Source: Arcobacteraceae bacterium
Lineage (GTDB): Bacteria; Campylobacterota; Campylobacteria; Campylobacterales; Arcobacteraceae
Reading direction: 5' to 3'
Assembly: GCA_963662945.1 (NCBI GenBank)
Contig: OY759974.1
Span: forward strand, 2,080,001 to 2,144,000
Length of the DNA: 64,000 bases
In this document: piece after piece, positions 42,404-57,291 of the stretch
Position numbering within the stretch: position 1 is the stretch's first letter
Layout: every line of letters starts with the position of its first letter
Translations under genes and position numbers: made by a program
The notes under the pieces: generated by a model
What the model saw: only the letters and a program-made list of their open reading frames with translations
Database searches by the model: none
Told to the model about the DNA's origin: nothing

Positions 42404-43792
42404 TTATATGAAAAGTAAAAATAATCCCAAGCCAAGGATAAACACTAAACTTCCATACTCAAATACTTTTTTTAAAGTATTGTTTTGTGAGGATTTTTTC
42501 CTTACATTGATACTTAGGTAGGCAGTGATAAAGATGATTAAACTCATCCCTAAGCTCATAAATATAGCACTTAAAAATCCTACATAATAAATTCCAAGTC
42601 CAAAAGTAAAGATAAAGATAGTTACAGTTCCAGGGCAGGGTACAATTCCTGCAGCTAGTATCACCCCTAAATCTTCACTTTTTGTGTTACATCCGCTACA
42701 TCCACAGCTTGGTGCATTTGGATTGTGTATAGAAAAAGTAAGTTTATTTGTAGTTTTATATTTTTTATAGATAAGGTATAAAGCTATAGATATGATAATA
42801 ACAGCACTTAATTTTGTAGCCACATATTCAATATCTGTTATAAAGCTTATAAATAATAAATTAAGAACAAAATATATAAACATAGTAAGTAAAAATGCAC
42901 TAAAAGTATGAACAACCCCTATAAGTAATGAGATATTAAAAGCTTTTACAACAGAGCGATTTTCACTTAAAAAGTAGCTAGAAACTAAACTTTTTCCATG
43001 ACCAGGACCAAGGGCATGCAAAATTCCATAAGCAAAAGAGAAGAATAATAGCCACAAATAAGAGCTAATAGAATTTGTTTGTTTTATATCAGTTAAAAGT
43101 GTTTGAATTTTTTCTTTATAAAGTTTTAATTGCTGTGATAATTCTTGAAACAAATCTGTTTTATGTTTGGATTCTATAACAGTTGTTATATTTTTTTCAG
43201 GAGTCTTTTTTAGTACAATTGATGGGTCATTAAACTCAATTATTGCATAATGTTCAAAAGGTTTAATAATATATTTACCCTGATAGTTTTCTAAAATTAT
43301 ATCTTCTAATTTAAAGTTAAAATTATTTTGCTCATCTAAAAAAGAAATTCTTAATATATGGTTGTATTGAGGCATAAAGTCTGCATCAAAACTAAAAGAA
43401 TAATACATAAAACCATTTTCAAATAACATTTTTTTTGAGTTAGGTTTGATATTTAAAGGTTTTTTTGAGATAAAATGTTTTTGTGCATAGGTTATATGTG
43501 TAAGATAATTAAAATTATTGAGATAATCTTCTAAAGCTTTTGTAATAGCTTCTTGTTCTTCTTTATCAAATTTTCCATTTGAATTTTGATCATATTGCGT
43601 AAGACTTGAAACAAATTTTTTATCAAATTTCCATTGAACTTCAAAGTGTGTTGTGGTTGGAAGTGTGGATACTTTTGTTGTAACAGTTACAACTGGTATA
43701 TCCATTTGACATAAAGCACAACCAAAACTGGCTGTGCTTGTAAAAAGTGTTAATAAAATATAGAATAAAATTTTATTTATTGGCAATTGCAT
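42404..43792 (-). CDS. DUF1007 + NicO/RcnA-type permease fusion (ZevA-ZevB-like)
   Basis: Signal peptide plus CALC, W.FD...YDQNSNGKFD; then HALGPGHGK, HTFSA, VPCPG. Confidence 0.82.
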   Translation of the reverse strand: MQLPINKILFYILLTLFTSTASFGCALCQMDIPVVTVTTKVSTLPTTTHFEVQWKFDKKFVSSLTQYDQNSNGKFDKEEQEAITKALEDYLNNFNYLTHITYAQKHFISKKPLNIKPNSKKMLFENGFMYYSFSFDADFMPQYNHILRISFLDEQNNFNFKLEDIILENYQGKYIIKPFEHYAIIEFNDPSIVLKKTPEKNITTVIESKHKTDLFQELSQQLKLYKEKIQTLLTDIKQTNSISSYLWLLFFSFAYGILHALGPGHGKSLVSSYFLSENRSVVKAFNISLLIGVVHTFSAFLLTMFIYFVLNLLFISFITDIEYVATKLSAVIIISIALYLIYKKYKTTNKLTFSIHNPNAPSCGCSGCNTKSEDLGVILAAGIVPCPGTVTIFIFTFGLGIYYVGFLSAIFMSLGMSLIIFITAYLSINVRKKSSQNNTLKKVFEYGSLVFILGLGLFLLFI

Positions 43793-44666
43793 TTGCTAAT
43801 TGTATTAAATTTTCACTCCATTTTGGATTAAGAGGACTTACTTTTATTACAGGTATTCCAACTTCTTGAGCTATTTGCTTTGCTACTTTATCACTAAATT
43901 CAGGCGCAGTAAAAACTGCTTTTACTTTTTCTTCTTTTGCTTCATCTATTAAATATGCTACTTGTTTTGGTTTTGGATTTTTCCCACCAGCTTCAATTGC
44001 TACTTGTGTAAGTCCATAATCTCGTGCAAAATATCCCCAAGCTGGATGAAATACCATAAATTTTGTGCCACTTGCAGTATCTATCAATATTTTTTTGATA
44101 GTATGATCAGTTTGATTTATTTTTTCCAAAAATTTTTCATAGTTGTTTTTATAATATGCTTCATTTTTACTATCAAGTTTTACCAAGGCATTAAAAATAT
44201 TTTTTGCTATGATTTTTACATTTGCTGTACTTGTCCAGATATGTGGGTCTAATGAGTCATGTTCGTGTTCATGGTCATGATCTTCTTTGTCTGTTTTATG
44301 TTCATGCTCGTGTCCATCTTCCTCATGATGATGTTCACCCATAGGAATTTTTTCAACTCCTTTTGCAAGATTAACAATCTCCATATTTTTATTTTGGTCA
44401 GCAAATTTTGGAAGCCATGATTCTTCAAATTCAACTCCAATAGAAAAATATACATCAGCATTTGAAATATCTTTCATTTGTGATGGTTTTGGCTCATAAG
44501 AGTGAGGAGAACTTCCTGGTTTTACCATTAGAGCTACATTTACTTTATCTGCTCCAATTGCTTTAACAAAAGTTTGTTGAGGCAATACACTTACTACAGC
44601 ATTTACATTTGCATATAAAAAACTTGTAGCTGTAAAAATAGTTGTTACTAGTAATTTTTTTATCAT
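43773..44666 (-). CDS. ZnuA-like metal-binding protein (cluster A-I)
   Basis: SPHSYEP, His-rich loop, DPHIW, FHPAWGYF. Confidence 0.93.
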   Translation of the reverse strand: MIKKLLVTTIFTATSFLYANVNAVVSVLPQQTFVKAIGADKVNVALMVKPGSSPHSYEPKPSQMKDISNADVYFSIGVEFEESWLPKFADQNKNMEIVNLAKGVEKIPMGEHHHEEDGHEHEHKTDKEDHDHEHEHDSLDPHIWTSTANVKIIAKNIFNALVKLDSKNEAYYKNNYEKFLEKINQTDHTIKKILIDTASGTKFMVFHPAWGYFARDYGLTQVAIEAGGKNPKPKQVAYLIDEAKEEKVKAVFTAPEFSDKVAKQIAQEVGIPVIKVSPLNPKWSENLIQLANAIANK

Positions 44667-44677
44667 TTTCTATCCTT

Positions 44678-45523
44678 TTAGAATTTGTATTTTAACATTA
44701 ATGATGTAACTTTTGTATCTACATCATCTTGTCTTTCTGGTAATTCTTTACCATTTTGATATGAGTATTTTACCATTATATCAAAGTTTTTAAATTGTTT
44801 TCCAAAACTTACCATATAGGTTTTGTCTTGTTCCATTGCATGATGTTGTACTTTGTTTCCATCATCCATAACTGTAAATATTCTTTTCCCAAAAAAAGCA
44901 CCAACACCAGCAACATATCCTTGATAATTCATACCTAGTTTTACACCAGTAGTAAAATAATCTTTATCTTGGAAACTATAAGTTGCATATTTATCACCAT
45001 CTATTTTGATAGTTTTTGCAATAACTGATGCTTTTAATTTTGTTTCACCGATTTTAAAACCTTTGAAAACTGATACATCATATTGATTTACATTAAACTG
45101 CTCATAGTCACTTTTATAGTAATCAAGTGCTACACCAAAACCTTTGTTAATATTATATATTCCACCTAGTCCATATACTTTCCCTTGATCTGTTGGAGCA
45201 AGGTTATCAAGTATTTTGATATAACTTGTTTTTAAAGTAAAAAGTTCATTGAAATTATACTTATAATTTACATTGTATTTTTTTACATGTAAAGTATCAA
45301 TAGGTCTATGAGTAACTGGATTTTCTCTATCTACACTATCTTGCTGATAGTTTAATTGTATTGTAGAGTTTTCATAATTATGCATTGTTCCAACTGTATA
45401 AATTGTACCATCTTTTTTGGTTTTAGAGTTAGTATAGTCTTTGATTCCTGCATCTAAATATATGTTACTATTAGCAGTTAAAAAAGAGCTACAAACAACT
45501 AAACCAAACACTAATTTTTTCAA
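44678..45523 (-). CDS. putative outer-membrane beta-barrel protein
   Basis: TTG start at 45523 after AAGGAG; signal peptide; amphipathic strands; terminal YKF; VQHHAME motif. Confidence 0.75.
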   Translation of the reverse strand: MKKLVFGLVVCSSFLTANSNIYLDAGIKDYTNSKTKKDGTIYTVGTMHNYENSTIQLNYQQDSVDRENPVTHRPIDTLHVKKYNVNYKYNFNELFTLKTSYIKILDNLAPTDQGKVYGLGGIYNINKGFGVALDYYKSDYEQFNVNQYDVSVFKGFKIGETKLKASVIAKTIKIDGDKYATYSFQDKDYFTTGVKLGMNYQGYVAGVGAFFGKRIFTVMDDGNKVQHHAMEQDKTYMVSFGKQFKNFDIMVKYSYQNGKELPERQDDVDTKVTSLMLKYKF

Positions 45524-45537
45524 ATACTTCTCCTTGT

Positions 45538-45604
45538 TGCAACTTAGTTGCATTTAATATTTCGGAAGTATATATGAAAAAATCTTAAGTGCGACTTAGT
45601 TGCA
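45538..45604. promoter_or_regulatory. two 7-1-7 palindromic operators (Zur/Fur-family-like)
   Basis: TGCAACTTAGTTGCA (45538-45552) and TGCGACTTAGTTGCA (45590-45604). Confidence 0.75.
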
Positions 45605-45616
45605 TTACAATAAGTT

Positions 45617-46804
45617 TTATTCCTTGATTAAATGCTCATATCTCTTATCAGTCAAAAGTTTCATAAAAGCTACCAAAGCCTCCACTTTTCTTTCACTTAA
45701 AGGCTTTCCAACAGTTAAAAGTTTCATATCATCTTTGGCAATCTCTACTTCTGGTTTATTCCAAACTTTTCCTGTCTCTGGATTTATAGTATTTTCTTTA
45801 TTGGTATATTTATCATAAAACTTTACAACAGTTTTTAAGTCTTGAAATACACCATTATGCATATAAGGGGCTGTTACCGCTATGTTTCTTAGTGTTGGTA
45901 CTTTTATTTTTCCATCGTATTGTTTTGCATTTGGTAGTTTTTTTATCTCTGGATTTTGTAAGAGACCATGATCTACGAAAGTATGTGGATCTACTACATT
46001 TTTTTCCATTAAAGTTTTGTTTTGTGGTACTCCTATATTGTGATACTGGTAGTTTGAAAAAGTTTCTTGAGGTGCATCTTCTGTTTTTAGCATATGACAC
46101 GAAGCACAATTTGTGTTGTTGTTACTAAAAAAGAGTGTTCTTCCCAAATCTTCTAAAGCAGTTAGATCATATTCACCTTTTAAAAATCTATCATATTTAC
46201 TATCAAAAGGGGCAAATTGTTCTGTTTTTTCAAAACTTGCAATGGCTTGTGCCATCATAGAGTAGGCTTTGTCACTATCTTTGAAAATATCTTCCCCATA
46301 GATTTTTTTGAACTCTTGATTGTATGTTGGACTATTTTGAAGTCTTTTTACTAAGTATTGGGCTGAGGGCATTCCCATCTCTACAGAGTTCATAGGAGGT
46401 CCACCTGCTTGTCCCTCTAAAGTATGTTCTCTTCCATCATAAAATTGTCCACCAATATATTGTTTTTTCTTTTTATCGTAGTGAAATTTTGGACTAAACA
46501 TTGCATAAGAGGCAGTGGGTGCATTTCTATCTCCGATACTTTTTCCATCATCTCCTAAGCTTCCTGCCCCTTTTACACCATTATCTCTCTCATCTATAAA
46601 TCCATGTTGTGGATTGTGGCAGGTTGCACAGGATTGGGTTTTGTTTTTGGATAAAATAGGGTCAAAAAAAAGTTTTTCCCCTAATGCTATCTCTTGTTTC
46701 TCTTTTAATTTTGCTGTTTGTGTATCAATATTATTTGAACTACATCCTGCAAATATTATTAGGGTAGTTGCTATTGATAAACCTATTTTAAATTCTTTTG
46801 CCAT
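45617..46804 (-). CDS. di-haem bCcP/MauG-superfamily lipoprotein
   Basis: Lipobox FAGC, CATCH, CASCH, VPTLRN..TAPYMHNG. Confidence 0.9.
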   Translation of the reverse strand: MAKEFKIGLSIATTLIIFAGCSSNNIDTQTAKLKEKQEIALGEKLFFDPILSKNKTQSCATCHNPQHGFIDERDNGVKGAGSLGDDGKSIGDRNAPTASYAMFSPKFHYDKKKKQYIGGQFYDGREHTLEGQAGGPPMNSVEMGMPSAQYLVKRLQNSPTYNQEFKKIYGEDIFKDSDKAYSMMAQAIASFEKTEQFAPFDSKYDRFLKGEYDLTALEDLGRTLFFSNNNTNCASCHMLKTEDAPQETFSNYQYHNIGVPQNKTLMEKNVVDPHTFVDHGLLQNPEIKKLPNAKQYDGKIKVPTLRNIAVTAPYMHNGVFQDLKTVVKFYDKYTNKENTINPETGKVWNKPEVEIAKDDMKLLTVGKPLSERKVEALVAFMKLLTDKRYEHLIKE

Positions 46805-47705
46805 ATTTAACTCCTAGTTTTTTAAATGGGATAAATAAAAGGTTTGATATTGTTTGAAAATCTTTTATCTCTACTCCAAAATGTATTTTTTCATTGTTTT
46901 TTATTGTGTGTGAAAGTTGTAAAGTTCCAAAAACTTTATCCCAGATTGCTAAATATCCACCATAGTTTTTGTTGTAGTATTTTGTACTATGGTGTAGTTG
47001 ATGTCCATAAGGGGAGATAAAAATATTTTCTAAAACTTTTGGATAGGAAAGTTTGATATGTGAATGTCTTAAATTTGAACCCATAAGTGAGAAAAAAAAC
47101 AATATCACATTAACTCCAACTATCTCAATAACACCAATCATCGCACCAAAAAAGTATATAAATATTCCACTTACAAGCCCAATACTTAAAGAATACCGCA
47201 GTGCAAATAAGATATTTTCTATTGGATGTATTCTATAAAAAGTGAGTGGATTTAATACTTTTGCACTATGATGTACTTTGTGAAATTCCCAAAGAATAGG
47301 GATAGTATGTAAAAACCTATGTATCCAATATCTTGTAAAATCACTCACTAGAAAAAGAGTAATAGTAAAAAGTATCATCACTTCTGTGTAAGAAAAATAT
47401 GTAACTTTTACAAAACCATAATTTTCTAGTAAAAATTTATAAGTCAAAAGTGTTATCTCTTTTGCACTTACAATAATTGGTAATATCAAAAGTGTTTTGA
47501 TAAAAAATGAAACTATAAAATATTTATAGTCTAGTAGGGCACTTTTATGAAACCATAGTTGAGGGCTTAAGTTTATCCTTCTCTCTTTTTTATACACTAA
47601 AAGATATACGGAAGCTATAAAAAGTGATGAGAGGATATACACCCAATAGATTCTTTTACTTGGACTAAAAAGTGCTATAAAAGAATCAACTAAACTAGTT
47701 TCCAT
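46788..47705 (-). CDS. sterol desaturase / fatty-acid hydroxylase family di-iron membrane protein
   Basis: His boxes HRFLH, HKVHH, RHSH, HQLHH; WDKVFGT. Confidence 0.92.
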   Translation of the reverse strand: METSLVDSFIALFSPSKRIYWVYILSSLFIASVYLLVYKKERRINLSPQLWFHKSALLDYKYFIVSFFIKTLLILPIIVSAKEITLLTYKFLLENYGFVKVTYFSYTEVMILFTITLFLVSDFTRYWIHRFLHTIPILWEFHKVHHSAKVLNPLTFYRIHPIENILFALRYSLSIGLVSGIFIYFFGAMIGVIEIVGVNVILFFFSLMGSNLRHSHIKLSYPKVLENIFISPYGHQLHHSTKYYNKNYGGYLAIWDKVFGTLQLSHTIKNNEKIHFGVEIKDFQTISNLLFIPFKKLGVKYGKRI

Positions 47706-47708
47706 ATA

Positions 47709-48668
47709 TCAATCTCCGTCCGCATCCAAGATTTTTGCTGTAACTTTTAACTCATCAATAAGTGAAATATAATAAGCTATATGAAGTTTTTTAAGATTTT
47801 CATATAACTCTTGCGTGTGTGTTAAATCATCATTTTTTATCTTGGCTGTATTTTTCAAGGCATTATTGAGATACTGTGTAGTTTCTTTTAATACTTTTGT
47901 TGCACCATAATCTTGTAAAGTATCTCCAAAGTTTTTAAAACTTTGAGTATCAAGTACTCTTTTGTGTGTTTCAAGGATTGATTGAATTGCTAAAACACTA
48001 TTTTTACTTATAGTATATTCAGCCCTTGAATTATCTGGTTTGTTTTCATGTTTTTTTGTAAAACCAGCTGTATCTCCAACTCTCCACTCGGTAAGTTTAT
48101 AAGAGTTTTCACTCAAAGAGTTTAATATAATAGCATTTGCTTTAAGTTCATTTTTTATAAATTTTTCTTTTTGTTGTAAATATCCATTATAAATCTCAGT
48201 AAGATTGTTTTCCATGGTTTGTAAAATAATAAGTGTAATATCTTTTATTCTTTGATTATGAAGATTTTTTGTAAATAAGATATATTCTAAAGCATTGATA
48301 GTTTTATGTGAGTTTTTATACAAACTTATTTTTAAATCCTCAGAGCTAGCTATAATCAAATCAAGTTGTTCTTTTATATCTTCATTGCCTTGATGAAAAG
48401 TATCTAAATATCTTGGTGTATCTAGATAGTTTTCATCTAAATCTCCCAAGATATAAAAGGCTTCTATGCTTTTCCAACTTTTTACAATATTTTTAAAATC
48501 ATTTTGTACCATACCGAAGTTATCTTGTTTGATATGTTTTTGTAAAGTTTTTACATCTTCTATACTTTGTTTACTATTTTTTAAAATAACATTGTCATAC
48601 AAAGAGATTAAGTTCTCATTTGCAAATAGTGTATTTAGTAAAAATACAACTCCTAATATCCATCTCAT
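47709..48668 (-). CDS. imelysin-family protein
   Basis: Helical exported protein, KTINALEY, terminal DADGD. Confidence 0.8.
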   Translation of the reverse strand: MRWILGVVFLLNTLFANENLISLYDNVILKNSKQSIEDVKTLQKHIKQDNFGMVQNDFKNIVKSWKSIEAFYILGDLDENYLDTPRYLDTFHQGNEDIKEQLDLIIASSEDLKISLYKNSHKTINALEYILFTKNLHNQRIKDITLIILQTMENNLTEIYNGYLQQKEKFIKNELKANAIILNSLSENSYKLTEWRVGDTAGFTKKHENKPDNSRAEYTISKNSVLAIQSILETHKRVLDTQSFKNFGDTLQDYGATKVLKETTQYLNNALKNTAKIKNDDLTHTQELYENLKKLHIAYYISLIDELKVTAKILDADGD

Positions 48669-50069
48669 CTATAATTCCTTTATATAGTTTATAATTTTAT
48701 TTCGTTGATTTTCGGTTAAGCTCATAAAATCATTTTTGATTTGTAAAGCTTCGCCTGCGTGCCATAAAATAGCTTCTTCAATAGTTTTTGCTCTTCCATC
48801 ATGTAAAAATTCAGGTTCTTTCCCTAAAGTTAATTTATGTTTTCCTATTCCCCAAAGTGGAGCAGTTCTCCATTCATTTTTATTTGCTTTGAACTCCACT
48901 CTTCCATCACTTAAACCTTCACCCATATCGTGCAGTAACATATCTGTAAATGGTTTTATCACATAGCCAGAGTTCAGAGTATACGAAGGGATATGGCACT
49001 TTACACAACCAATTTGTGCAAAAAGTTTTTCCCCTTCAAGTTCTGTTATAGTTGATTTTGGAATTTTTAAATTTTTTAAATAAAATGCAATAGATTCCAG
49101 TCTATGCATTGGCAAATCAAAAGGTGTGCCAGCTCTTAATGTATCTCCTTTTGGAGCTTTGAGACAATTTTCTTGGGAGCTTGTACAGTTCTCATTTGGG
49201 AATAGGGGAGTTGTGAGACTCATATCATTATGGGCTGCTGCTGCACTTTGGTGTATCACTGATGGTGCTGAAGCTTTATAAGTATATCTTCCAACTTTAA
49301 AAGTTTTTTCAGATGGACTATAGACAATATTTGCTTTTCCTGATATTCCATCATTATTTTTATCTTCTATATCTTCATTTTTTAAGATTTGTTCATCGCT
49401 TAATTGTTCTAAAAGTCCCAAACCTAGAAGGGCAGGGGCAAGTCTAGAAGATAGTGAAACTTTTTCATTCATCTTTCCATAGTTTAAATGGGTAAGTTGA
49501 TTTTCAACTCCATGAAATGGTTGTTTTAGTGTAACTATTTTTCCATCTGGATAGGTTACTTTGATATCTTTATATGCTATAAGTGGCTTTGCTTCAAAAG
49601 GTACATCTTGTGAACCATTGATACTTATTTGTGAACCATAGGTTTCTTCACTTACAAAACCATTGTATTTGAGCATATCTTGATGTTGTTTTGAACCATT
49701 TGAGGGAATTGAAACTCTTAATATATATGATCTTGATATAGAACCATTTTCATTATAAAGTGAGCCTTTGCCATTTTTTGGATGACAGCTAATACAGGTA
49801 TTTGCATTGAAAAGTGGACCTAGTCCATCTCTTGCAGTTGTAGCACTTGGTGCTTCTACCCAAGGGATTCTATAAAAACTTTTTCCTTCTATAAACTTAT
49901 CTATTTGTTCATCATTTAAACCTGAGACTTGTTGTGAAAAAATATTTTTAGAAGAGTTTGTTGTTGTATAAATCTTATCAAGTTTTTCTTGTATTGTTTC
50001 ATTTGATAGAAGTGCAGTGGTAAAAACCACTGTACTTAAAAGAAAACTATATTTTAGTTTCTTCTGCAT
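48669..50069 (-). CDS. di-haem oxidoreductase (DHOR/DUF1111)
   Basis: ARDGLGPLFNANTCISCH, CVKCH, LLHDMG, EWRTAPLWG, LHDGRA. Confidence 0.93.
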   Translation of the reverse strand: MQKKLKYSFLLSTVVFTTALLSNETIQEKLDKIYTTTNSSKNIFSQQVSGLNDEQIDKFIEGKSFYRIPWVEAPSATTARDGLGPLFNANTCISCHPKNGKGSLYNENGSISRSYILRVSIPSNGSKQHQDMLKYNGFVSEETYGSQISINGSQDVPFEAKPLIAYKDIKVTYPDGKIVTLKQPFHGVENQLTHLNYGKMNEKVSLSSRLAPALLGLGLLEQLSDEQILKNEDIEDKNNDGISGKANIVYSPSEKTFKVGRYTYKASAPSVIHQSAAAAHNDMSLTTPLFPNENCTSSQENCLKAPKGDTLRAGTPFDLPMHRLESIAFYLKNLKIPKSTITELEGEKLFAQIGCVKCHIPSYTLNSGYVIKPFTDMLLHDMGEGLSDGRVEFKANKNEWRTAPLWGIGKHKLTLGKEPEFLHDGRAKTIEEAILWHAGEALQIKNDFMSLTENQRNKIINYIKEL

Positions 50070-51384
50070 CTGTTACATCTTCAACTGATAATTTGATACC
50101 ATTTGCACCAGCAATATCTACCATTTTATCACCTAATTTTCGTAATTCATTTTTTAGTTTTACGATTACTTTAGCTTGTGGATCAGTTGGATGAATCTGA
50201 TAATCAAAATGTCTACTTGTTTGAGCAATTGCATTGATTGATTCAATTTTAGATTCAATTTGACCTAAAAGTTCTAGTATCTCTTTTTTAGCTTCAACAG
50301 ACAAAGCATCTATAGGAGCTGTTCCATAATCTACACCTTTATATGTTCCCATAAGAAGATTTTTAAATCCTTGATAGTTTGTAGCAATATCTCTATGAGT
50401 ATTATCACTAAAACAACTATGCTCATCCTCTTCACTAGGAGTTAAAACAGCAACTGCAATTCTTTCATTTGCTAGTTCTGATTTTATAAATACACCCATC
50501 CCTGCAAAAATTTGTTTTAAGGCTTCATTTTGAGCAATGTTTTTTGAACTATCACTATTTATTCCTAATATTGCAGCTCTATAGTTTGTCATATCTCCTG
50601 TTTTCCAAGCATCTGAAATGATTGTTAAATCATCAACAATTTTTTGAGCACTAGCTTTTAGGTAAGCTAATCTTCTCTGTGCATTTTTATCTGTAGTAAA
50701 GTCACTTAAAGGTCGCTGACCTGCAGTTAAAGCACCTTTTGTAATTGAATCTTTTACAAAGTTACTATAATCTTGATCTTGTCCCCAAAGTAAAAATTCA
50801 ACAGCATGGTATCCTGTAGCTACATTTGCTTCCCCACCATTTTCATTAAGTGCTGTTATTGCATCAACTGTGATATTTGTCACATCTACACTTGAACTTC
50901 CTTCACCACCTGGGTTGAATTTACCTTTTGTATCTATGATATTTCCTGATGTTTTAGCACCTTTTGCATCAATAGTATAATCAATCATATTTTCATCCAA
51001 TGGCCAAGCATTGATTTGTCCCTCTAGTGCACCATAAGTTTCTGCTACCCAACCTTCTTCTGCATCAATAGGACCATTAGAAAGTCTAAAAGCTTCAGTT
51101 AAACCATAAGATTCTCTAGAGATTAACCAAGCGGCTTTTGCTTCCACTAAAGTATCTTCTGTTGGATTTGCTGTGAATTTATCAATAGCTATTTGTAAAA
51201 GTTTTGCATCATTTAAGGCATCTTTATAGTTGTCTTTAGCAATATTTGCATAAGTTTCTAACAGTGATGGTTCATTTTGTATTTTGGCAGTTGATGGATT
51301 ATTTCCAGTACAACCACTTAAAGCTAAAATAGCAGCAAAGCTTAGTCCTGTAATCATTGTTTTTGTTGTTTTTATCATCATCAT
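50047..51384 (-). CDS. imelysin/IrpA-like iron-regulated lipoprotein
   Basis: Lipobox LSGC, INAWPLDE, GYHAVEFLLWGQD, EDEHSCFSDNT. Confidence 0.93.
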   Translation of the reverse strand: MMMIKTTKTMITGLSFAAILALSGCTGNNPSTAKIQNEPSLLETYANIAKDNYKDALNDAKLLQIAIDKFTANPTEDTLVEAKAAWLISRESYGLTEAFRLSNGPIDAEEGWVAETYGALEGQINAWPLDENMIDYTIDAKGAKTSGNIIDTKGKFNPGGEGSSSVDVTNITVDAITALNENGGEANVATGYHAVEFLLWGQDQDYSNFVKDSITKGALTAGQRPLSDFTTDKNAQRRLAYLKASAQKIVDDLTIISDAWKTGDMTNYRAAILGINSDSSKNIAQNEALKQIFAGMGVFIKSELANERIAVAVLTPSEEDEHSCFSDNTHRDIATNYQGFKNLLMGTYKGVDYGTAPIDALSVEAKKEILELLGQIESKIESINAIAQTSRHFDYQIHPTDPQAKVIVKLKNELRKLGDKMVDIAGANGIKLSVEDVTDAEETKI

Positions 51385-51389
51385 TCCTT

Positions 51390-51884
51390 TTATTTTGAGA
51401 CTAAAAAGCCAATTTCTTTATCAATTATATGTAAACCGCGACCCTCTAAACCTACAATATCCATCTTGTCAAGGATACCTTTGAATAGCGCTTCTTCTTC
51501 ATGTTGTTCACTTAAATACCATTGAAGAAAGTTAAATGTTGCATAATCTTTTTGTTCTAAAGTTAATTCAACTAATTCATTGATTCTACTTGTAATAAAA
51601 AGTTCATGTTTATATGTTTTTTCAAATACATCTTTAATATCTTTAAAAACAGTATCAGGAGCATCAATACCTGAAATAACCGCTTGTGAACCTGTTTCGT
51701 TGATATAATTGAATAACTTATACATATGTCCTAATTCTTCTTTTGAATGATCTGCTAGAAATTTTGCAGCACCATCTAGACCTTGTGCTTTACACCAAGA
51801 TGACATCGAAAGATATAAGTTTGAAGAGAAATGCTCCAAATTTATTTGATGATTTAATTTATCTAATACCTCTTTTTTTAACAT
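51390..51884 (-). CDS. ftnA: non-haem ferritin
   Basis: QINLEHFSSNLYLSM, EELGH, HELFIT, FLQWYLSEQHEEE. Confidence 0.96.
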   Translation of the reverse strand: MLKKEVLDKLNHQINLEHFSSNLYLSMSSWCKAQGLDGAAKFLADHSKEELGHMYKLFNYINETGSQAVISGIDAPDTVFKDIKDVFEKTYKHELFITSRINELVELTLEQKDYATFNFLQWYLSEQHEEEALFKGILDKMDIVGLEGRGLHIIDKEIGFLVSK

Positions 51885-51912
51885 TGGATTTTCCTTTATT
51901 TATGTTATAATA

Positions 51913-51979
51913 AAGTTCAATATTTTATTGAACACCACAAGTTAAAGATGTGTAGTTTGGCGGCTTACATCTTTAACTT
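51913..51979 (-). repeat. two-hairpin element, copy B (between porin and ferritin)
   Basis: GTTCAATA-TTT-TATTGAAC plus AAGTTAAAGATGT...ACATCTTTAACTT; homologous to 53137-53199. Confidence 0.85.
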
Positions 51980-51987
51980 TTTTTATT

Positions 51988-53097
51988 TTAGAAACTGTAA
52001 ACTAACTGTGCACTATAATAAGTACTATCATCGTTTGCAACATGAGCATCAATATCAGCAAATATTAAACTCACTGTAAAATTTTTATATAATTCTTTAT
52101 CAATTGTAAAGTTAAACTCTTTTTCTGTTTCGTCTACAGTTCCATTTTTATAGTCTGTTGAACCATAAATTGCTCCAAAATCAAATCCTGCTACACTATA
52201 GTTTGCACCTATATAGTAAGTATCAGCATCAGTTCCATAAACTTGATTTCCACTATCTAATGGATTGATATTTTCACCTAAAGCCTCAAGAGTACCAATT
52301 CCTCCATCTTTATCTGTAGTGATATATCCTGCATTGACACCAAATGTATCGTTTGCGTAACTTAAATCTACAGCAGCAATATTACCATCTACAGTTCCTG
52401 CAACATCTTCATCTGTTGTAGTGTATTTAGCAATAGCACCAAAACCATTCATATTAAAATCAATTTTCCCACCAACTGCACTAAATGTATCTTTAGCATC
52501 CATATAGTATGCACCTAATGCTAAATTATCATTGATTGTATAAGTTGCATCTATTACATAAGCACCATCACCATTTGTACCAATATCAGAAAACTTGTAA
52601 AGTGCTTCATCATTTGCACTTGCACTTACTTTATCAGTATAACCTACGATTAAAGTAGTATTTGGAATTGCAGTTATAACTCCAACAGCAGCTTCATGGT
52701 AGTCCGATATCCATTCTAAATCAATCTCTTGTCTACCAAGTGTAAGTGAAAACACATCATTTGCATATCCTACATTTGCAATATTTAACAATGCTTTTGG
52801 AACATCTCTACCATCTTCATAATCACCATTTTCTTTTTCATCAAGTTCAGTACTTGACATAAATCCAACAGCTGCTTTAAATCCATTAAGTGTATCTGTT
52901 TCATAGTTTATGTTGATATGTCCTAGACTATATCCACTGTCAGGTGTAGTTCCACCATTGTCGTTACTTACAGTATACGCTGAAATTTCTCCACTTGTTT
53001 TTCCATTTTTAAATGCATCTTCTAAAGTATTGCTATCAGCTACTAAATTACTTGTAAGTAATGCTGCTGTTAATATGCTTAAGTTGATTTTTTTCAT
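51988..53097 (-). CDS. Opr/OprD-like outer-membrane porin
   Basis: Signal peptide, LEDAFKNGKTSGE, GRQEIDLEW, terminal YSF. Confidence 0.88.
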   Translation of the reverse strand: MKKINLSILTAALLTSNLVADSNTLEDAFKNGKTSGEISAYTVSNDNGGTTPDSGYSLGHININYETDTLNGFKAAVGFMSSTELDEKENGDYEDGRDVPKALLNIANVGYANDVFSLTLGRQEIDLEWISDYHEAAVGVITAIPNTTLIVGYTDKVSASANDEALYKFSDIGTNGDGAYVIDATYTINDNLALGAYYMDAKDTFSAVGGKIDFNMNGFGAIAKYTTTDEDVAGTVDGNIAAVDLSYANDTFGVNAGYITTDKDGGIGTLEALGENINPLDSGNQVYGTDADTYYIGANYSVAGFDFGAIYGSTDYKNGTVDETEKEFNFTIDKELYKNFTVSLIFADIDAHVANDDSTYYSAQLVYSF

Positions 53098-53136
53098 TTG
53101 ATTCTCTTTCCTTTTATATCAATTCATCGATTTTGT

Positions 53137-53199
53137 AAGTTCAATATTTTATTGAACGCCATTATTAAAGATATGTAATTTGACGGCTGTATCTTTAAT
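53137..53199 (-). repeat. two-hairpin element, copy A (upstream of porin)
   Basis: GTTCAATA-TTT-TATTGAAC plus ATTAAAGATA...TATCTTTAAT. Confidence 0.85.
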
Positions 53200-53221
53200 G
53201 TGTGAAATTTCCCTTTTTGAT

Positions 53222-53311
53222 TTAATTAGTAAGGTGTTTATGTCTATAATGAATTCCATTTACCTTTGAATTTTTTTTAAGAAAATTAAAAAACTGTCGT
53301 AAAAAGTTCAT
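53222..53311 (-). CDS. unannotated 29-aa small ORF / leader peptide
   Basis: AGAAAGGAG RBS 9 nt before ATG; MNFLRQFFNFLKKNSKVNGIHYRHKHLTN*. Confidence 0.6.
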   Translation of the reverse strand: MNFLRQFFNFLKKNSKVNGIHYRHKHLTN

Positions 53312-53361
53312 AACAATTAACTCCTTTCTAATTAAATTAAACAATGAAATTATAATTATAT

Positions 53362-53433
53362 TAATATTCATTATCAATATGAAATCTTATTATAAATATT
53401 CTTAATTATTTCTTATATTGATAGTTATTATCA
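53362..53433. promoter_or_regulatory. Fur boxes in the divergent porin/CDF promoter
   Basis: TGATAGT-T-ATTATCA (53419-53433) and TAATATT-C-ATTATCA (53362-53376) versus consensus TGATAAT-N-ATTATCA. Confidence 0.75.
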
Positions 53434-53549
53434 GTATTATTAAAATATTTATATCAATTTAAGTTAGAAATATATACTATACCTAGAATTTAGACTTATT
53501 GGAATACTAGTAGCATATAGTATTTTATATAATAACAGAGGAAAATATA

Positions 53550-54509
53550 ATGGAAAGTTGTAATTTTGGTTTAAATGAACATAAACCTTTTTTCAAAGAA
53601 GAGATGCACCATCACCATCATCATGAACATCACCATGGAGAACATACACATCATCACGAACATTCACACGATCATAGAGGTACAGACAAAAAAGTATTGA
53701 AAATTGCATTAACTATAACTTTTATTACAATGCTTGCTGAGTTTTTTTATGGTTTTTTATCACATTCTTTAGCACTGATTTCTGATGCTATACATATGTT
53801 TACACACTCATTTGCACTTATTATTTCACTTGTTGCAATTATTATTGCAAGTAAAGAAGCACCATTAGAGAAAACATTTGGATATTATAGAGCAGAAGTT
53901 CTTGCTGCATTTATAAATGGAATCACTATTATACTTTCGATTGTATGGATTTTATATGAAGCAGTTGATAGGTTTTTAAATCCACAAACCATAGATATAA
54001 AAACTGCAATGATTGTGGCTGTCATAGGACTTGTAGTAAATATTATTACAGGTGTTATTTTGATGCAAGGGGATAAAGATAATATCAATCTTAAATCTGC
54101 ATTTGTTCATATGTTAAGTGATGCTTTATCTTCAGTTGCGATTATTATTGGATATATTGTTATATCTTTTACAAATTGGTATTTTATAGATGTTATATTA
54201 GCTGTATTGGTTGCTTTTGTTATTGGAAGATGGGCTGTTGATGTTTTAAAACATTCTATCAATACTTTAATGGAAAGTTCCCCTATAGATATAGAAGAGG
54301 TAAAACAGTATATTGAGCAACATAAAGAGGTAATCGAGTTACACGATGTACATATTTGGGAGATAACACAAGATATGTATAATATGACAGCACATGTGAA
54401 GATTGAAAAAAGTTCTTTAGAAAATTATGAAGAGCTTTTAAAACAGTTAAACAATCAATTACAAGAGAAGTTTAAAATTGTACATACTACCTTTCAGTTT
54501 GAATGGTAG
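53550..54509 (+). CDS. CDF (CzcD/ZitB-like) metal transporter
   Basis: His-rich N-terminus, SLALISDAIHM, TFGYYRAE, HMLSD, LHDVHIW, HTTFQFE. Confidence 0.95.
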   Translation: MESCNFGLNEHKPFFKEEMHHHHHHEHHHGEHTHHHEHSHDHRGTDKKVLKIALTITFITMLAEFFYGFLSHSLALISDAIHMFTHSFALIISLVAIIIASKEAPLEKTFGYYRAEVLAAFINGITIILSIVWILYEAVDRFLNPQTIDIKTAMIVAVIGLVVNIITGVILMQGDKDNINLKSAFVHMLSDALSSVAIIIGYIVISFTNWYFIDVILAVLVAFVIGRWAVDVLKHSINTLMESSPIDIEEVKQYIEQHKEVIELHDVHIWEITQDMYNMTAHVKIEKSSLENYEELLKQLNNQLQEKFKIVHTTFQFEW

Positions 54510-54519
54510 TATACTATTT

Positions 54520-54984
54520 TTATAATGATTTGTTTTGACAATTTTTACATATGCCATACAACATCATAGTATGGCTTTGAAGTAAAAAACCATTTTCTAT
54601 TGCCACGAGTTCTTGTATTTTTTCAACTTCAGCATCATAAAACTCAACAATTTTTCCACACTCCACACATACCATATGGTCATGATGAGAGGTCAGTGTT
54701 AATTCATAAACTTTACTTTCAAAACCATCTATGGATATCCCTGTGACCGTATTAAGTTCTTCAAGTAAATTTAGAATTCTATAAACAGTTGCAATTCCAA
54801 TATTTATATTATAAGTACTTTTGACTCTTTTTGCCACATCTTCAGCACTAATATGTTTATCACAATCAAATAATATTTTTAATACATATTCTCTTTGATT
54901 TGAATTATTTAATCCTAATGATTTAATAGTTCTTCTAAATTTTAATATATATTCATCATAAGATACTGTTAAATTTTTTTTCAT
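54520..54984 (-). CDS. fur: Fur-family regulator
   Basis: IATVYRIL, HHDHMVCVECG, YGICKNC; ATG 54984 follows AAAGG. Confidence 0.88.
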   Translation of the reverse strand: MKKNLTVSYDEYILKFRRTIKSLGLNNSNQREYVLKILFDCDKHISAEDVAKRVKSTYNINIGIATVYRILNLLEELNTVTGISIDGFESKVYELTLTSHHDHMVCVECGKIVEFYDAEVEKIQELVAIENGFLLQSHTMMLYGICKNCQNKSL

Positions 54985-55030
54985 ATTGAAACCTTTAATA
55001 ATCATTCTAAAGTAAGTCAATTATCAATTG

Positions 55031-55098
55031 TGATAATTAATATCAAAATATTAACAGAGAGTAACTTTATTTAATCTTAATACTGATAATAGTTATCA
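55031..55098. promoter_or_regulatory. Fur boxes upstream of fur
   Basis: TGATAATTAATATCA (55031-55045) and TGATAATAGTTATCA (55084-55098). Confidence 0.75.
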
Positions 55099-55134: not shown

Positions 55135-57291
55135 TTAAAAAATAACTTTCATATTAAATGTAAAACTTCGTGGAGAACCTACATAATAATTTGTAGTGTC
55201 TTCTAAGATATCCGCACTTCCTACACTTGCAACATATTTTTCATTGAAAATATTTAATAACGATAGTTGTAATGAGAGTTCTTTTGCAAAATTTAATTTC
55301 TTATATGTATATCCATACGACAAATCAAAAGTTACATAATCATCTATTTTTTCTTTATTTTCAATATCAGCATATCTCTCCCCTATGTATCTTCCATTGA
55401 GTGAAAATAGATGATTATCTATTTTGTAAGTTGTTCCTGCTTTTAAAGTGAATTTAGGAGTCTCAGCTACTTCATTTCCTTTGAGGTTATATTGAGTTCC
55501 TGAGTAATCTATATTACTCTTTACTTCACTAAATGTTAGTGCTGGATTGATAAAAAACCATAGATTAGGTGTAGGTTCAATACTGCTTTGTATTTGAGTT
55601 CCGTACACTACTGCTTTACCTATGTTTTGAAGATAATCGATACCAACAGTAGGGTCATATGCCGAACTTAATAAATCATCATGGATATTGTAAAATAAAC
55701 TTAAAGTCGCTTCCCCTTTTTCAAAATATTTTCTGATTCCTACATCAATAAGATCAGAAGTTTCCATATCCCAAGACTCGACAACTGATTGGAGAGTTTT
55801 CCCTTGTGCAAGTAGCTTTGTTCTTAATCCATTTTTGTTAGCAGCATATTGTGCAGCAAAAGAGTATCTATATGGTCTTTGATATCCTTTCCCCCATTTT
55901 GCAAAAAACTCTGTAGCTTCATCAATCTCATATCTAGCCCCAATAGTTGGAAGTAAAAGATTATATTTCATTTCATCTACACTTCCTCCAGGTGCAATTG
56001 TTCCTCGACTAATTGCAATATCATAATCTGATTCTAAATTATTTCCTAGATATGTATCGTTTGCAGCTTCTTTATAGTAAAGATATCGAAGACCAGCTTC
56101 GATTTTTAGTTTCTTGAAATTTTTACTAGCTGAGATATATGGAGAAATAAGATCTGTAGCTCCATGGTTTTTATTAAGCCATTTCCAACCTTGATGAACT
56201 CTAGCAGGTGTAGTAGAAACCTTTCGCACATATTTTTCAAGCCAACTACGTTCTAACCATATACCACTTTCCATGCTAAAACTGTTAAAATCATACTTTG
56301 AATCCAATTGAAATCCAACGCGTTTTGCATCTACTTGTCCATATCCATCCCCTTCATCACTTTTTTCATCATACCCTGAACCGTAAATTTTTAAAAGAGA
56401 ATCTGTTCCAAAAAGTTTTTGTTTAAGTGACAATTGAAGATCATCATAACTTGAATCTGTTTTCCAATAATCATAATAGTCAATTGCATTTGGATTATTA
56501 GATTGGTAATCTTTGTTGTAGTTTGCATTAAGATTTAAAATTTCATTATAGGTAAGTCCCATAAAATTATGTTTTTTTTGTTCATTGTGAGAGTAAAATA
56601 TTTCTATTGGGAAAGTTTCATTACCTGTATTTACCCCAATAGCTAAATTTCTTTTTTCTCCTAAATCACCTTTGCCTTTCCATTTTTTTGCATTTGCTTG
56701 ACTCATTGAGATAAAAGCTTTGGAATAATCATCTATTTTTCCAGTATCAGCCCGTAAAAATAGTTTGTAAAAATCATCTTCACCCATACTTAGTGAAAGT
56801 TCCCCTTGTGTTACATCAGAGGGTCTTTTAAAAATAAGATTTATGAGTCCAGCTTTACTTCCTACACCACTTCCAGAACTTGGATTTAAAGCACCATTAT
56901 AGTGTTCAATAGTTTCTAGATTTTCTAGATCATAAATCCCTTGTCTTGGGCCTATGGGACGAATAGAATAGTTTGGAACCCCCTCTAAACTTATTGCCAT
57001 AAAGTTGTCATCTACTCCACGACTTCTTGCACTAGTTTCACCTAATCCGTATGGATCTTGAGTCTCTACTATAAATCCAGGTTCAATATCAAGGGTTTTA
57101 TAGATAGAAGATTTTGCTTTATTAGAATAAAGATCAATACCATTACTTTTAATCTCATTTTTTTCTCTTAAAGGATTACTATCTTGTGTTGTAGGATTTT
57201 CTGGTTGGTATCCAATAACTGTTATAGGGGCAAGATCTACAGCAAAAAGTGCAGTGCTTGTAAAGATCAATGTAAAAATTTGCTTTTGCAT
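55135..57291 (-). CDS. TonB-dependent receptor
   Basis: Signal peptide, ITVIG TonB-box-like segment, plug domain, NIFNEKY...GSPRSF...F terminus. Confidence 0.92.
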   Translation of the reverse strand: MQKQIFTLIFTSTALFAVDLAPITVIGYQPENPTTQDSNPLREKNEIKSNGIDLYSNKAKSSIYKTLDIEPGFIVETQDPYGLGETSARSRGVDDNFMAISLEGVPNYSIRPIGPRQGIYDLENLETIEHYNGALNPSSGSGVGSKAGLINLIFKRPSDVTQGELSLSMGEDDFYKLFLRADTGKIDDYSKAFISMSQANAKKWKGKGDLGEKRNLAIGVNTGNETFPIEIFYSHNEQKKHNFMGLTYNEILNLNANYNKDYQSNNPNAIDYYDYWKTDSSYDDLQLSLKQKLFGTDSLLKIYGSGYDEKSDEGDGYGQVDAKRVGFQLDSKYDFNSFSMESGIWLERSWLEKYVRKVSTTPARVHQGWKWLNKNHGATDLISPYISASKNFKKLKIEAGLRYLYYKEAANDTYLGNNLESDYDIAISRGTIAPGGSVDEMKYNLLLPTIGARYEIDEATEFFAKWGKGYQRPYRYSFAAQYAANKNGLRTKLLAQGKTLQSVVESWDMETSDLIDVGIRKYFEKGEATLSLFYNIHDDLLSSAYDPTVGIDYLQNIGKAVVYGTQIQSSIEPTPNLWFFINPALTFSEVKSNIDYSGTQYNLKGNEVAETPKFTLKAGTTYKIDNHLFSLNGRYIGERYADIENKEKIDDYVTFDLSYGYTYKKLNFAKELSLQLSLLNIFNEKYVASVGSADILEDTTNYYVGSPRSFTFNMKVIF

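Follow-up and report, generated by a model that had tools for sequence, protein, structure and literature searches.

A putative Fur-controlled operon of an Arcobacteraceae bacterium joins imelysins and a DUF1111 protein to a membrane di-iron protein and a MauG-type enzyme

The icmP cluster of Pseudomonas aeruginosa (PA4370-PA4372) and the VC1264-VC1266 genes of Vibrio cholerae are Fur-regulated and code for two imelysin-like proteins and a di-haem protein of the DUF1111 family; EfeU is reported to be absent from clusters of this type (PMC3143127, Xu et al. 2011). The mechanism of iron uptake by imelysin/DUF1111 systems has been open since 2011. Here we analyze an operon with such a trio, located at positions 45617-53433 of a stretch of 64,000 nucleotides from an Arcobacteraceae bacterium (contig OY759974.1 of assembly GCA_963662945.1, positions 2,080,001 to 2,144,000; the whole stretch is called the window below). 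Two further proteins belong to the system as fixed components in this operon and in many lineages: a MauG-type enzyme and a membrane di-iron protein. We think that the locus is probably a Fur-controlled iron-starvation operon, in which a five-gene periplasmic iron-capture core has been supplemented, in this lineage, with a leader, an Opr porin and a ferritin. This view draws on sequence comparison, that is, on gene content and order, on the Fur-type boxes, on the conservation of the order across phyla, and on the fusion or adjacency of the membrane protein to exported iron proteins.

All seven open reading frames (ORFs) between 45617 and 53097 are on the minus strand, as read from the ORF list, with families assigned by Pfam and NCBIfam. 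The first two code for an Opr-type porin (51988-53097; 369 residues with a signal peptide; Pfam Porin_4; NCBIfam opr_porin_1, 280 bits for a cut-off of 100) and for a cytoplasmic non-haem ferritin (51390-51884; 164 residues; Pfam Ferritin, 142 bits; NCBIfam equivalog NF007638, 193.4 bits for a cut-off of 178). The porin gene is a variable accessory of the core, and the ferritin gene a recurrent yet variable one. The core begins with imelysin 1 (50047-51384), a lipoprotein with the lipobox LSGC that matches Pfam Peptidase_M75 with 216.6 bits and that alone has the canonical GxHxxE motif, as GYHAVE at residue 191. The DHOR/DUF1111 di-haem protein (48669-50069; PF06537, 266.6 bits) has a signal peptide and two CxxCH motifs, and its gene sits between both imelysin genes; no solved relative was found by sequence search. 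Imelysin 2 (47709-48668; signal peptide; PF09375, 59.1 bits) lacks GxHxxE and is of the PA4372/IPPA type. The fourth core protein, henceforth FAH (46788-47705; 305 residues), falls in the FA_hydroxylase family of membrane di-iron proteins, PF04116 (88.5 bits for a Pfam cut-off of 31); it is the sole integral inner-membrane protein of the operon and the product of the only PF04116 gene in the genome. The fifth is a MauG-type di-haem lipoprotein (CCP_MauG; 45617-46804), with the lipobox FAGC and two CxxCH motifs. Both peroxidase-like proteins are c-type di-haem proteins and neither matches the DyP family in Pfam. From the porin gene to the MauG-type gene, the gaps between genes are of 103, 5, -23, 0, 3 and -17 nucleotides. 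Thus, the seven co-directional genes behind Fur-type boxes that a preliminary description of this DNA had reported were borne out by ORFs, families, spacing and boxes. Two of its labels are corrected here: its desaturase, FAH, is a PF04116 protein (the fatty-acid hydroxylase/sterol desaturase superfamily), and its di-haem lipoprotein is a close MauG homologue.

That preliminary description had proposed a neighborhood survey of the desaturase, imelysin and DHOR genes. FAH relatives were scanned with one genome per species, which gave at least 588 stretches, and the best 80 were mapped by tblastn. At 47 of these 80 loci (L023-L069), FAH is about 42-72% identical to the protein studied here. The order imelysin-DHOR-imelysin-FAH-MauG-like was found at 41 of the 47; four more are cut by a contig end and are consistent with it, and the two exceptions are L047, without a MauG-like gene after FAH, and L060, with a truncated FAH and no imelysin upstream. 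The survey thus bore the co-occurrence out in several phyla, the taxa given for these records including Campylobacterota, SUP05/Thioglobus, Moraxella, Bisgaardia, Pelistega, Advenella and Oligoflexales. Of 184 genomes in the family of the host, 116 were found to encode an FAH orthologue, with few exceptions just once. Flanking genes seen across 14 cassette loci are feoAB, Fe(III) ABC genes, ferritin or bacterioferritin with bfd, FTR1, flavodoxin and porins, and also a short Fur-like gene. A literature search, the coverage of which did not extend to subscription journals, found no published link of an imelysin with a PF04116 protein or with a MauG-type gene. The trio is already known; for the leader and the two added core genes, the literature searched has no description.

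The region upstream of the porin gene has two Fur-type boxes, neither assigned to a strand. Box 1 (53419-53433) is a 7-1-7 inverted repeat with one mismatch to TGATAATNATTATCA, which we take to be the 7-1-7 Fur consensus, and it is kept upstream of a small ORF in relatives. Box 2 (53362-53376), with two mismatches, overlaps the -35 hexamer and the spacer of a candidate sigma-70-like promoter (53349-53377, minus strand; TTGATA, 17 nucleotides, TATAAT), which agrees with the consensus at 11 of 12 positions and is the best such match on the minus strand. Nine matches to the 7-1-7 form were found in the window against 2.3 expected, a number reached in none of 100 shuffles. The 19-base-pair Fur consensus of E. 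coli, in the form we assume for it, had no match within the window with up to three mismatches, and the 7-1-7 form was used instead. At 28 of 42 related loci a Fur-type box is found within 700 nucleotides upstream of imelysin 1, and the boxes are typically paired, near -90 and -35. A Fur-family gene lies just upstream of the operon (54520-55020); its best NCBIfam match is Fur, by a Helicobacter-type model.

The histidine boxes of FAH (HxxxH, HxxHH and HxxHH; H129, H133, H142, H145, H146, H235, H238 and H239) are invariant in 43 orthologues, and so are H214 and H216. An AlphaFold2 model of the protein (pLDDT 87.7, pTM 0.85) had no match in the PDB at E <=0.001 with Foldseek. The best solved fold, a weak match, was the yeast hydroxylase Scs7p (Foldseek E 0.54, TM 0.28-0.30), which was also the sole chain with Z >=5 by VIA (Z 5.1, rmsd 5.1 Å over 168 residues). 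None of the solved transporter folds matched the model beyond chance. More distant relatives, 37-43% identical to FAH, are encoded beside DUF4856, imelysin, TonB receptor or FbpA-like genes at 14 of the 15 loci examined. Moreover, longer relatives are fused to other domains: by manual count over the 120 proteins listed, FAH is joined to an Fe(III) binding protein in about 75, to a creatininase domain in 25, to CCP_MauG in 7, to a TonB receptor in 7, to an imelysin in 5 and to a Tad-like domain in 1. FAH is N-terminal in all 16 fusions scanned, and a reading frame of 700 residues, open through FAH and MauG, is present in two complete genomes of the family. In each of the 19 fusion linkers inspected, basic residues and then a segment resembling a signal peptide come after FAH, and a lipobox cysteine is often present. 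The C-terminus of FAH, and its histidine cluster too, are therefore cytoplasmic, and the partner is exported. The order across phyla, the Fur-type boxes at 28 of 42 loci, the iron genes in the flanks and the fusions together support both the link of the operon to iron and the earlier proposal that the membrane di-iron protein belongs to the iron system.

Among the fusions, P0149, P0202 and 23 others have the creatininase-family domain (PF02633) at the C-terminus, behind a hydrophobic segment. This domain would be outside the cytoplasm if the segment crosses the membrane.

A complex prediction, one of the checks put forward in the preliminary description, was made for FAH with mature imelysin 2. 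It gave a score of 0.52, and 0.00 for the best control. In the calibration set, 116 of 157 solved complexes and 2 of 215 mismatched pairs attained this mark; scores of 0.60 or below were obtained for just 18 of those 157 solved complexes and for both mismatched pairs that passed. The pLDDT of the partner was 86, and the runs shared at least 52% of their contacts.

The alternative that survives best, to which we give a real, if minor, chance, makes FAH an O2-dependent hydroxylase or desaturase of lipids of the ordinary kind. On this account FAH would remodel a membrane lipid (e.g. ornithine lipid, as OlsE does) or the lipid anchor of the lipoproteins in the cassette in iron starvation, and would help uptake indirectly. 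The score of FAH above the cut-off of PF04116, the invariance of the eight-histidine di-iron motif, the sphingolipid hydroxylase Scs7p as the best solved fold, and the presence of two lipoproteins in the cassette all fit with it. The best NCBIfam match of FAH is likewise OlsE, although its 59.5 bits are far under the cut-off of 475. However, a linkage that spans phyla and repeated fusions to exported iron proteins of four families are not what a lipid enzyme leads one to expect, some of the partners are not lipoproteins (e.g. Fe(III) binding proteins with signal-peptidase-I-type sites), and no conserved lipid-synthesis gene was found in the neighborhoods examined, whether of the cassette or of distant FAH loci. 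It would also be costly to induce a di-iron enzyme when iron is scarce. We tentatively put forward, as a joint claim that we hold to be possible and by no means probable, that FAH is not a lipid enzyme but a new class of inner-membrane iron-uptake component, which would serve exported Fe(III)-binding proteins (imelysin, FbpA-like, DUF4856, TonB receptors) and whose cytoplasmic di-iron site would be an acceptor, a reductase or an iron-status gate; in the same claim, the MauG-type enzyme would oxidatively mature or recycle an imelysin, in the way of MbnH with MbnP, and the small ORF would code for an undescribed small iron-homeostasis protein tied to ferritin.

We consider it unlikely that the operon is self-contained for capture, import and storage, with FAH as the iron permease of the inner membrane or as a conduit for electrons across it. 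In favor of this, no other product of the operon is an integral inner-membrane protein, PF03239 (FTR1/EfeU) had no match in the complete genome in a search whose control matched 4 known genomes, and the complex prediction lends weak support; in addition, FAH takes the place in the gene order that EfeU has in EfeUOB. However, FAH relatives are encoded in operons with an Fe(III) ABC permease (L078, L079) or beside feoAB (L036), and FeoB and an FbpA-like binding protein are encoded elsewhere in this genome. Moreover, the histidine cluster faces the cytoplasm, FAH is without a haem motif for carrying electrons across the membrane, and no solved transporter fold resembles it better than chance. Since some relatives of FAH are encoded together with an Fe(III) ABC permease in one operon, FAH cannot serve as the permease in general; these permeases, together with the FeoB and FbpA-like proteins encoded elsewhere, lead us to read FAH as an inner-membrane partner, for which we infer a redox or acceptor site. 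The same two proteins, and the coming and going of porin and ferritin among relatives, do not agree with the self-contained system that had been proposed at first.

Searched with phmmer, the fifth protein was closest to the MauG chains of Paracoccus (E 1e-103, 350 bits), ahead of the BthA-type chain 6nx0 (E 1e-43), the classical di-haem peroxidases (about 1e-23) and the MbnH chain 6e1c (1e-21). By manual count, it is about 48% identical to Paracoccus MauG over 357 aligned residues. Under the residue numbering and roles that we presume for MauG, the equivalents of the haem ligands, including the tyrosine (Tyr294), are invariant in 29 of 29 cassette orthologues, as are those of Gln103, Pro107, Glu113 and Met114. 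The equivalent of Trp199, a hopping residue at the surface of MauG, is in contrast Asn in all 29, and at the position of Trp93, which in MauG lies between the haems, there is W in 15 orthologues, H in 6, Y in 5 and L in 3, with Tyr in the protein studied here. The NCBIfam equivalog TTQ_mauG scored 96.8 bits, below its cut-off of 443.85, and the best NCBIfam model, that of the MbnH family (TIGR04039), scored 150.7 bits, below its cut-off of 362.85. No match to PF02975, the light chain of methylamine dehydrogenase, was found in the genome, but the control for this search also matched no genome. Judged from its residues, the fifth protein is MauG-like in its haem chemistry and must act on a different substrate. 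MbnH oxidatively modifies MbnP. By analogy, the MauG-type enzyme may bring about an oxidative maturation of imelysin; alternatively, it may oxidize Fe(II).

Since both di-haem proteins are of peroxidase-like families, and PerR boxes presumably resemble Fur boxes, the operon could also serve in defence against peroxide or oxidative stress under a PerR-like member of the Fur family, and not in iron uptake. This we regard as improbable: the neighboring regulator scores better as Fur (128.7 bits) than as PerR (71.4 bits), the cassette is flanked in other phyla by iron importers, bfd and flavodoxin and not by catalase or AhpC, and imelysins are iron-uptake proteins in the known systems (PMC3143127). 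The acquisition of another metal, e.g. copper, with the MauG-type enzyme modifying a periplasmic binding protein as MbnH does MbnP, is the least probable of the alternatives and very improbable in itself: the MbnH family provides the best NCBIfam model for the fifth protein, albeit below its cut-off, and zinc-uptake and cation-efflux genes (Pfam) flank the operon, but the boxes are of Fur type, ferritin, feo and fbp genes are neighbors in many lineages, the fifth protein resembles MauG far more than it does the solved MbnH chain, and the zinc operon has its own palindromic operator.

For the iron-starvation operon that we favor, the following sequence of events can be envisaged. At low iron, Fur would leave both boxes, and a single transcript would run from about 53342 through the small ORF, the porin and ferritin genes and the core. 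The porin would admit iron species to the periplasm, where the imelysins may bind iron in the manner of EfeO/EfeM and the two di-haem enzymes could provide an oxidative step, namely a peroxide-driven oxidation of Fe(II); for the MauG-type enzyme, this step may instead be the oxidative maturation of a partner protein. FAH would act as the inner-membrane partner, with its cytoplasm-facing di-iron center as redox or acceptor site, and not as a general permease. Iron probably crosses the inner membrane via FeoB or an Fbp-type ABC system encoded elsewhere, and would end in ferritin.

Several points weigh against this reading. We infer the chemistry of each of its steps. To our knowledge, every characterized PF04116 enzyme is a lipid oxygenase, and because FAH has kept all of the His-box residues, an ordinary lipid substrate is possible. 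The prediction of a complex between FAH and imelysin 2 counts as weak support. Boxes are denser upstream of imelysin 1 (1.81 per kilobase) than in the rest of the same loci (0.096 per kilobase), but the comparison sets mostly intergenic against mostly coding DNA, and base composition explains part of the difference; at 14 of the 42 loci there is no box of the 7-1-7 consensus before imelysin 1. The metatranscriptome runs X1 and X2 contain short contigs of relatives, 90-97% alike, and one of 891 nucleotides, from a porin-less relative, spans the leader, the hairpin element described below, the ferritin gene and the start of imelysin 1. This contig is compatible with co-transcription, but contigs from RNA libraries do not themselves demonstrate a transcript, and those of relatives can show neither a transcript nor a response to iron. 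Lastly, a ferritin gene under the same Fur-boxed promoter as uptake genes would be odd if Fur were a holo-repressor only. In related bacteria apo-Fur represses ferritin, and the direction of regulation is for this reason uncertain.

The leader contains a small ORF of 29 codons (53222-53311, minus strand), which follows the Fur boxes and has an AAGGAG-type ribosome site. Since its peptide motif (about LKKxSKxNGxYYR) is conserved while the DNA differs, the small ORF is probably translated. A profile made from six copies detected exactly one copy each in 9 of 28 genomes in the genus and in 12 of 184 in the family. In the eight relatives in which its locus was inspected, the small ORF follows Fur boxes or a Fur-like gene and precedes ferritin, imelysin or feoAB. 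The gene that comes next is ferritin in G006, G020, G015, G125, G174 and G113, imelysin 1 in G009, G043 and G004, and feoAB in G011 (L111); in three other genera (L133, L134, L135), the small ORF stands between a Fur-like gene or Fur boxes and ferritin. G013 (L110) has kept the Fur boxes and the small ORF and has lost the whole cassette; no more of it than the final codons of the MauG-like gene precedes the zinc operon.

A unit of about 60 nucleotides, a stable stem-loop followed by an AT-rich palindrome, occurs twice in the operon and nowhere else in the genome, a single contig of 2.5 Mb. Copy A (53139-53199, minus strand; folding z-score -2.8), with the loop motif GCCGYCAAAYTACA and then the palindrome GTTCAATAAAATATTGAAC, precedes the porin gene, and copy B (51915-51977, minus strand; folding z-score -4.4, with none of 200 shuffles folding as well) precedes the ferritin gene. 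In five species the element is placed between the small ORF and the first structural gene. In G009, G043 and G004, which have neither porin nor ferritin at the site, it precedes imelysin 1, and it is therefore not a device specific to ferritin, contrary to the earlier suggestion that the hairpins uncouple ferritin from uptake. The two copies are in keeping with an event in which the porin gene and one copy of the element were inserted into the leader. An alignment of five or six close copies has two pairs with double changes. No Rfam 15 family matches the element: nothing in the window reached the gathering score, and across 45400-53600 the matches, which lay elsewhere, were at chance level. 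By regular-expression search of 42 cassette loci from other taxa, the small-ORF motif was not found before imelysin 1, and the loop motif was present at seven, with a comparable hairpin at none. On the sequences compared, small ORF and hairpin are thus restricted to the genus and to a few neighboring genera.

Three interpretations of the hairpin unit were not retained. A riboswitch-like pseudoknot (loop GCCGY with a downstream RUGGY), seen by eye in four copies, is unproven, and the G009 copy breaks a pair. An IRE-like aconitase site was rejected, the loop not being CAGUG-like in most copies. For the second palindrome, considered as the operator of a regulon, exact sites in the genome number just two, and near-matches occur no more often than with the reversed control.

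The stability of the operon among close relatives was assessed by DNA comparison with 40 of them and by a tblastn map. The core five are kept in G009, G014, G008 and G020, and also, by DNA comparison, in G015. Porin and ferritin are both absent at the site in G009 and G043; G006 is without porin, and G014, G020 and G015 have ferritin and no porin. On this comparison, porin and ferritin are variable add-ons to the core. In G006 (L005) an intact ferritin gene (94% identity) is accompanied by an FAH gene with stops and by overlapping pieces that match DHOR and imelysin 2 at no more than 33-36%; this looks like a decaying cassette behind a retained ferritin. In some Campylobacterales, an extra gene lies between FAH and the MauG-like gene, a porin at L052 (10988-12358) and a gene of no assigned family at L055 (5854-7188), and at loci of this type the MauG-like gene is followed by a short Fur-like gene of 113-114 residues. 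A gammaproteobacterial locus, L088 (1-3935), has a second, divergent imelysin-DHOR pair and a further CCP_MauG gene beside the cassette.

On the upstream side, the gap between a TonB-dependent receptor gene (55135-57291) and the Fur-family gene (54520-55020) has two one-mismatch Fur-type boxes (55031-55045 and 55084-55098), downstream of the former and immediately before the latter. Their position suggests autoregulation of the Fur-family gene. Outside the window, a segment of the same genome (C1:2161609-2161716) is 76% identical to the Fur-box leader of the operon and lies about 1.2 kb from an FbpA-like binding-protein gene (2162882-2163874). On the other side, the palindrome ATGCAACTAAGTYGCA occurs twice (45538-45553 and 45590-45605) between the MauG-like gene and a downstream operon (42404-45553), which consists of a porin-like gene, ZnuA and a DUF1007-NicO fusion. 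It has four sites in the genome, and the reversed control none. From these counts, ATGCAACTAAGTYGCA is probably the operator of a small zinc-type regulon, and the downstream genes would thus form a separate unit.

With the cassette, what was a vague "iron-regulated cluster" becomes testable. One fixed partner of the trio is a membrane di-iron protein that is adjacent or fused to exported iron proteins of four families, and the other is a true MauG-type enzyme, the characterized relative of which modifies a protein substrate. Among the hosts are marine sulfur oxidizers (SUP05, Campylobacterota) and animal-associated genera (Moraxella, Bisgaardia, Pelistega), so that an answer would bear on iron cycling and on host colonization.

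Compared with clusters of the PA4370-PA4372 type, as these are portrayed in the portion of PMC3143127 available, the operon has in common a GxHxxE imelysin lipoprotein, a DUF1111 protein, a second imelysin without the histidine, and no EfeU; the clusters are under Fur control, and here putative Fur boxes are found at the promoter. The absence of FTR1/EfeU, held at first to be unusual, had its precedent in the imelysin/DUF1111 operons described in 2011 in that article. What differs is that, here and at the 41 of 47 related loci, the trio is followed by a PF04116 protein and a MauG-type enzyme (in the same portion of PMC3143127, the word "desaturase" does not occur), and that this lineage adds the porin, the ferritin, the small ORF and the hairpin. 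With EfeUOB/M, in the part of its account that could be consulted (PMC9174327), the operon shares a periplasmic M75/imelysin metal binder, a periplasmic haem peroxidase and a single membrane protein. However, there is no FTR1/EfeU in operon or genome, the haem proteins are of the c-type di-haem kind and not DyP, and the membrane protein is of an unrelated di-iron oxygenase family. Paracoccus denitrificans MauG (PDB 3l4m, 4y5r and others) and the cassette enzyme have two CxxCH motifs and equivalent His/Tyr haem ligands in common, but the cassette enzyme is a lipoprotein, with Asn in place of Trp199 and, here, Tyr in place of Trp93. Finally, FAH shares the PF04116 domain and the eight-histidine motif with the Scs7p and OlsE hydroxylases, Scs7p being its best, though weak, structural match. 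Unlike these enzymes, proteins of the FAH clade are extended at the N-terminus by about 110 residues, in which there are two additional helices and a conserved loop motif; they are found only in iron-uptake neighborhoods at the loci examined, and are fused to exported iron proteins.

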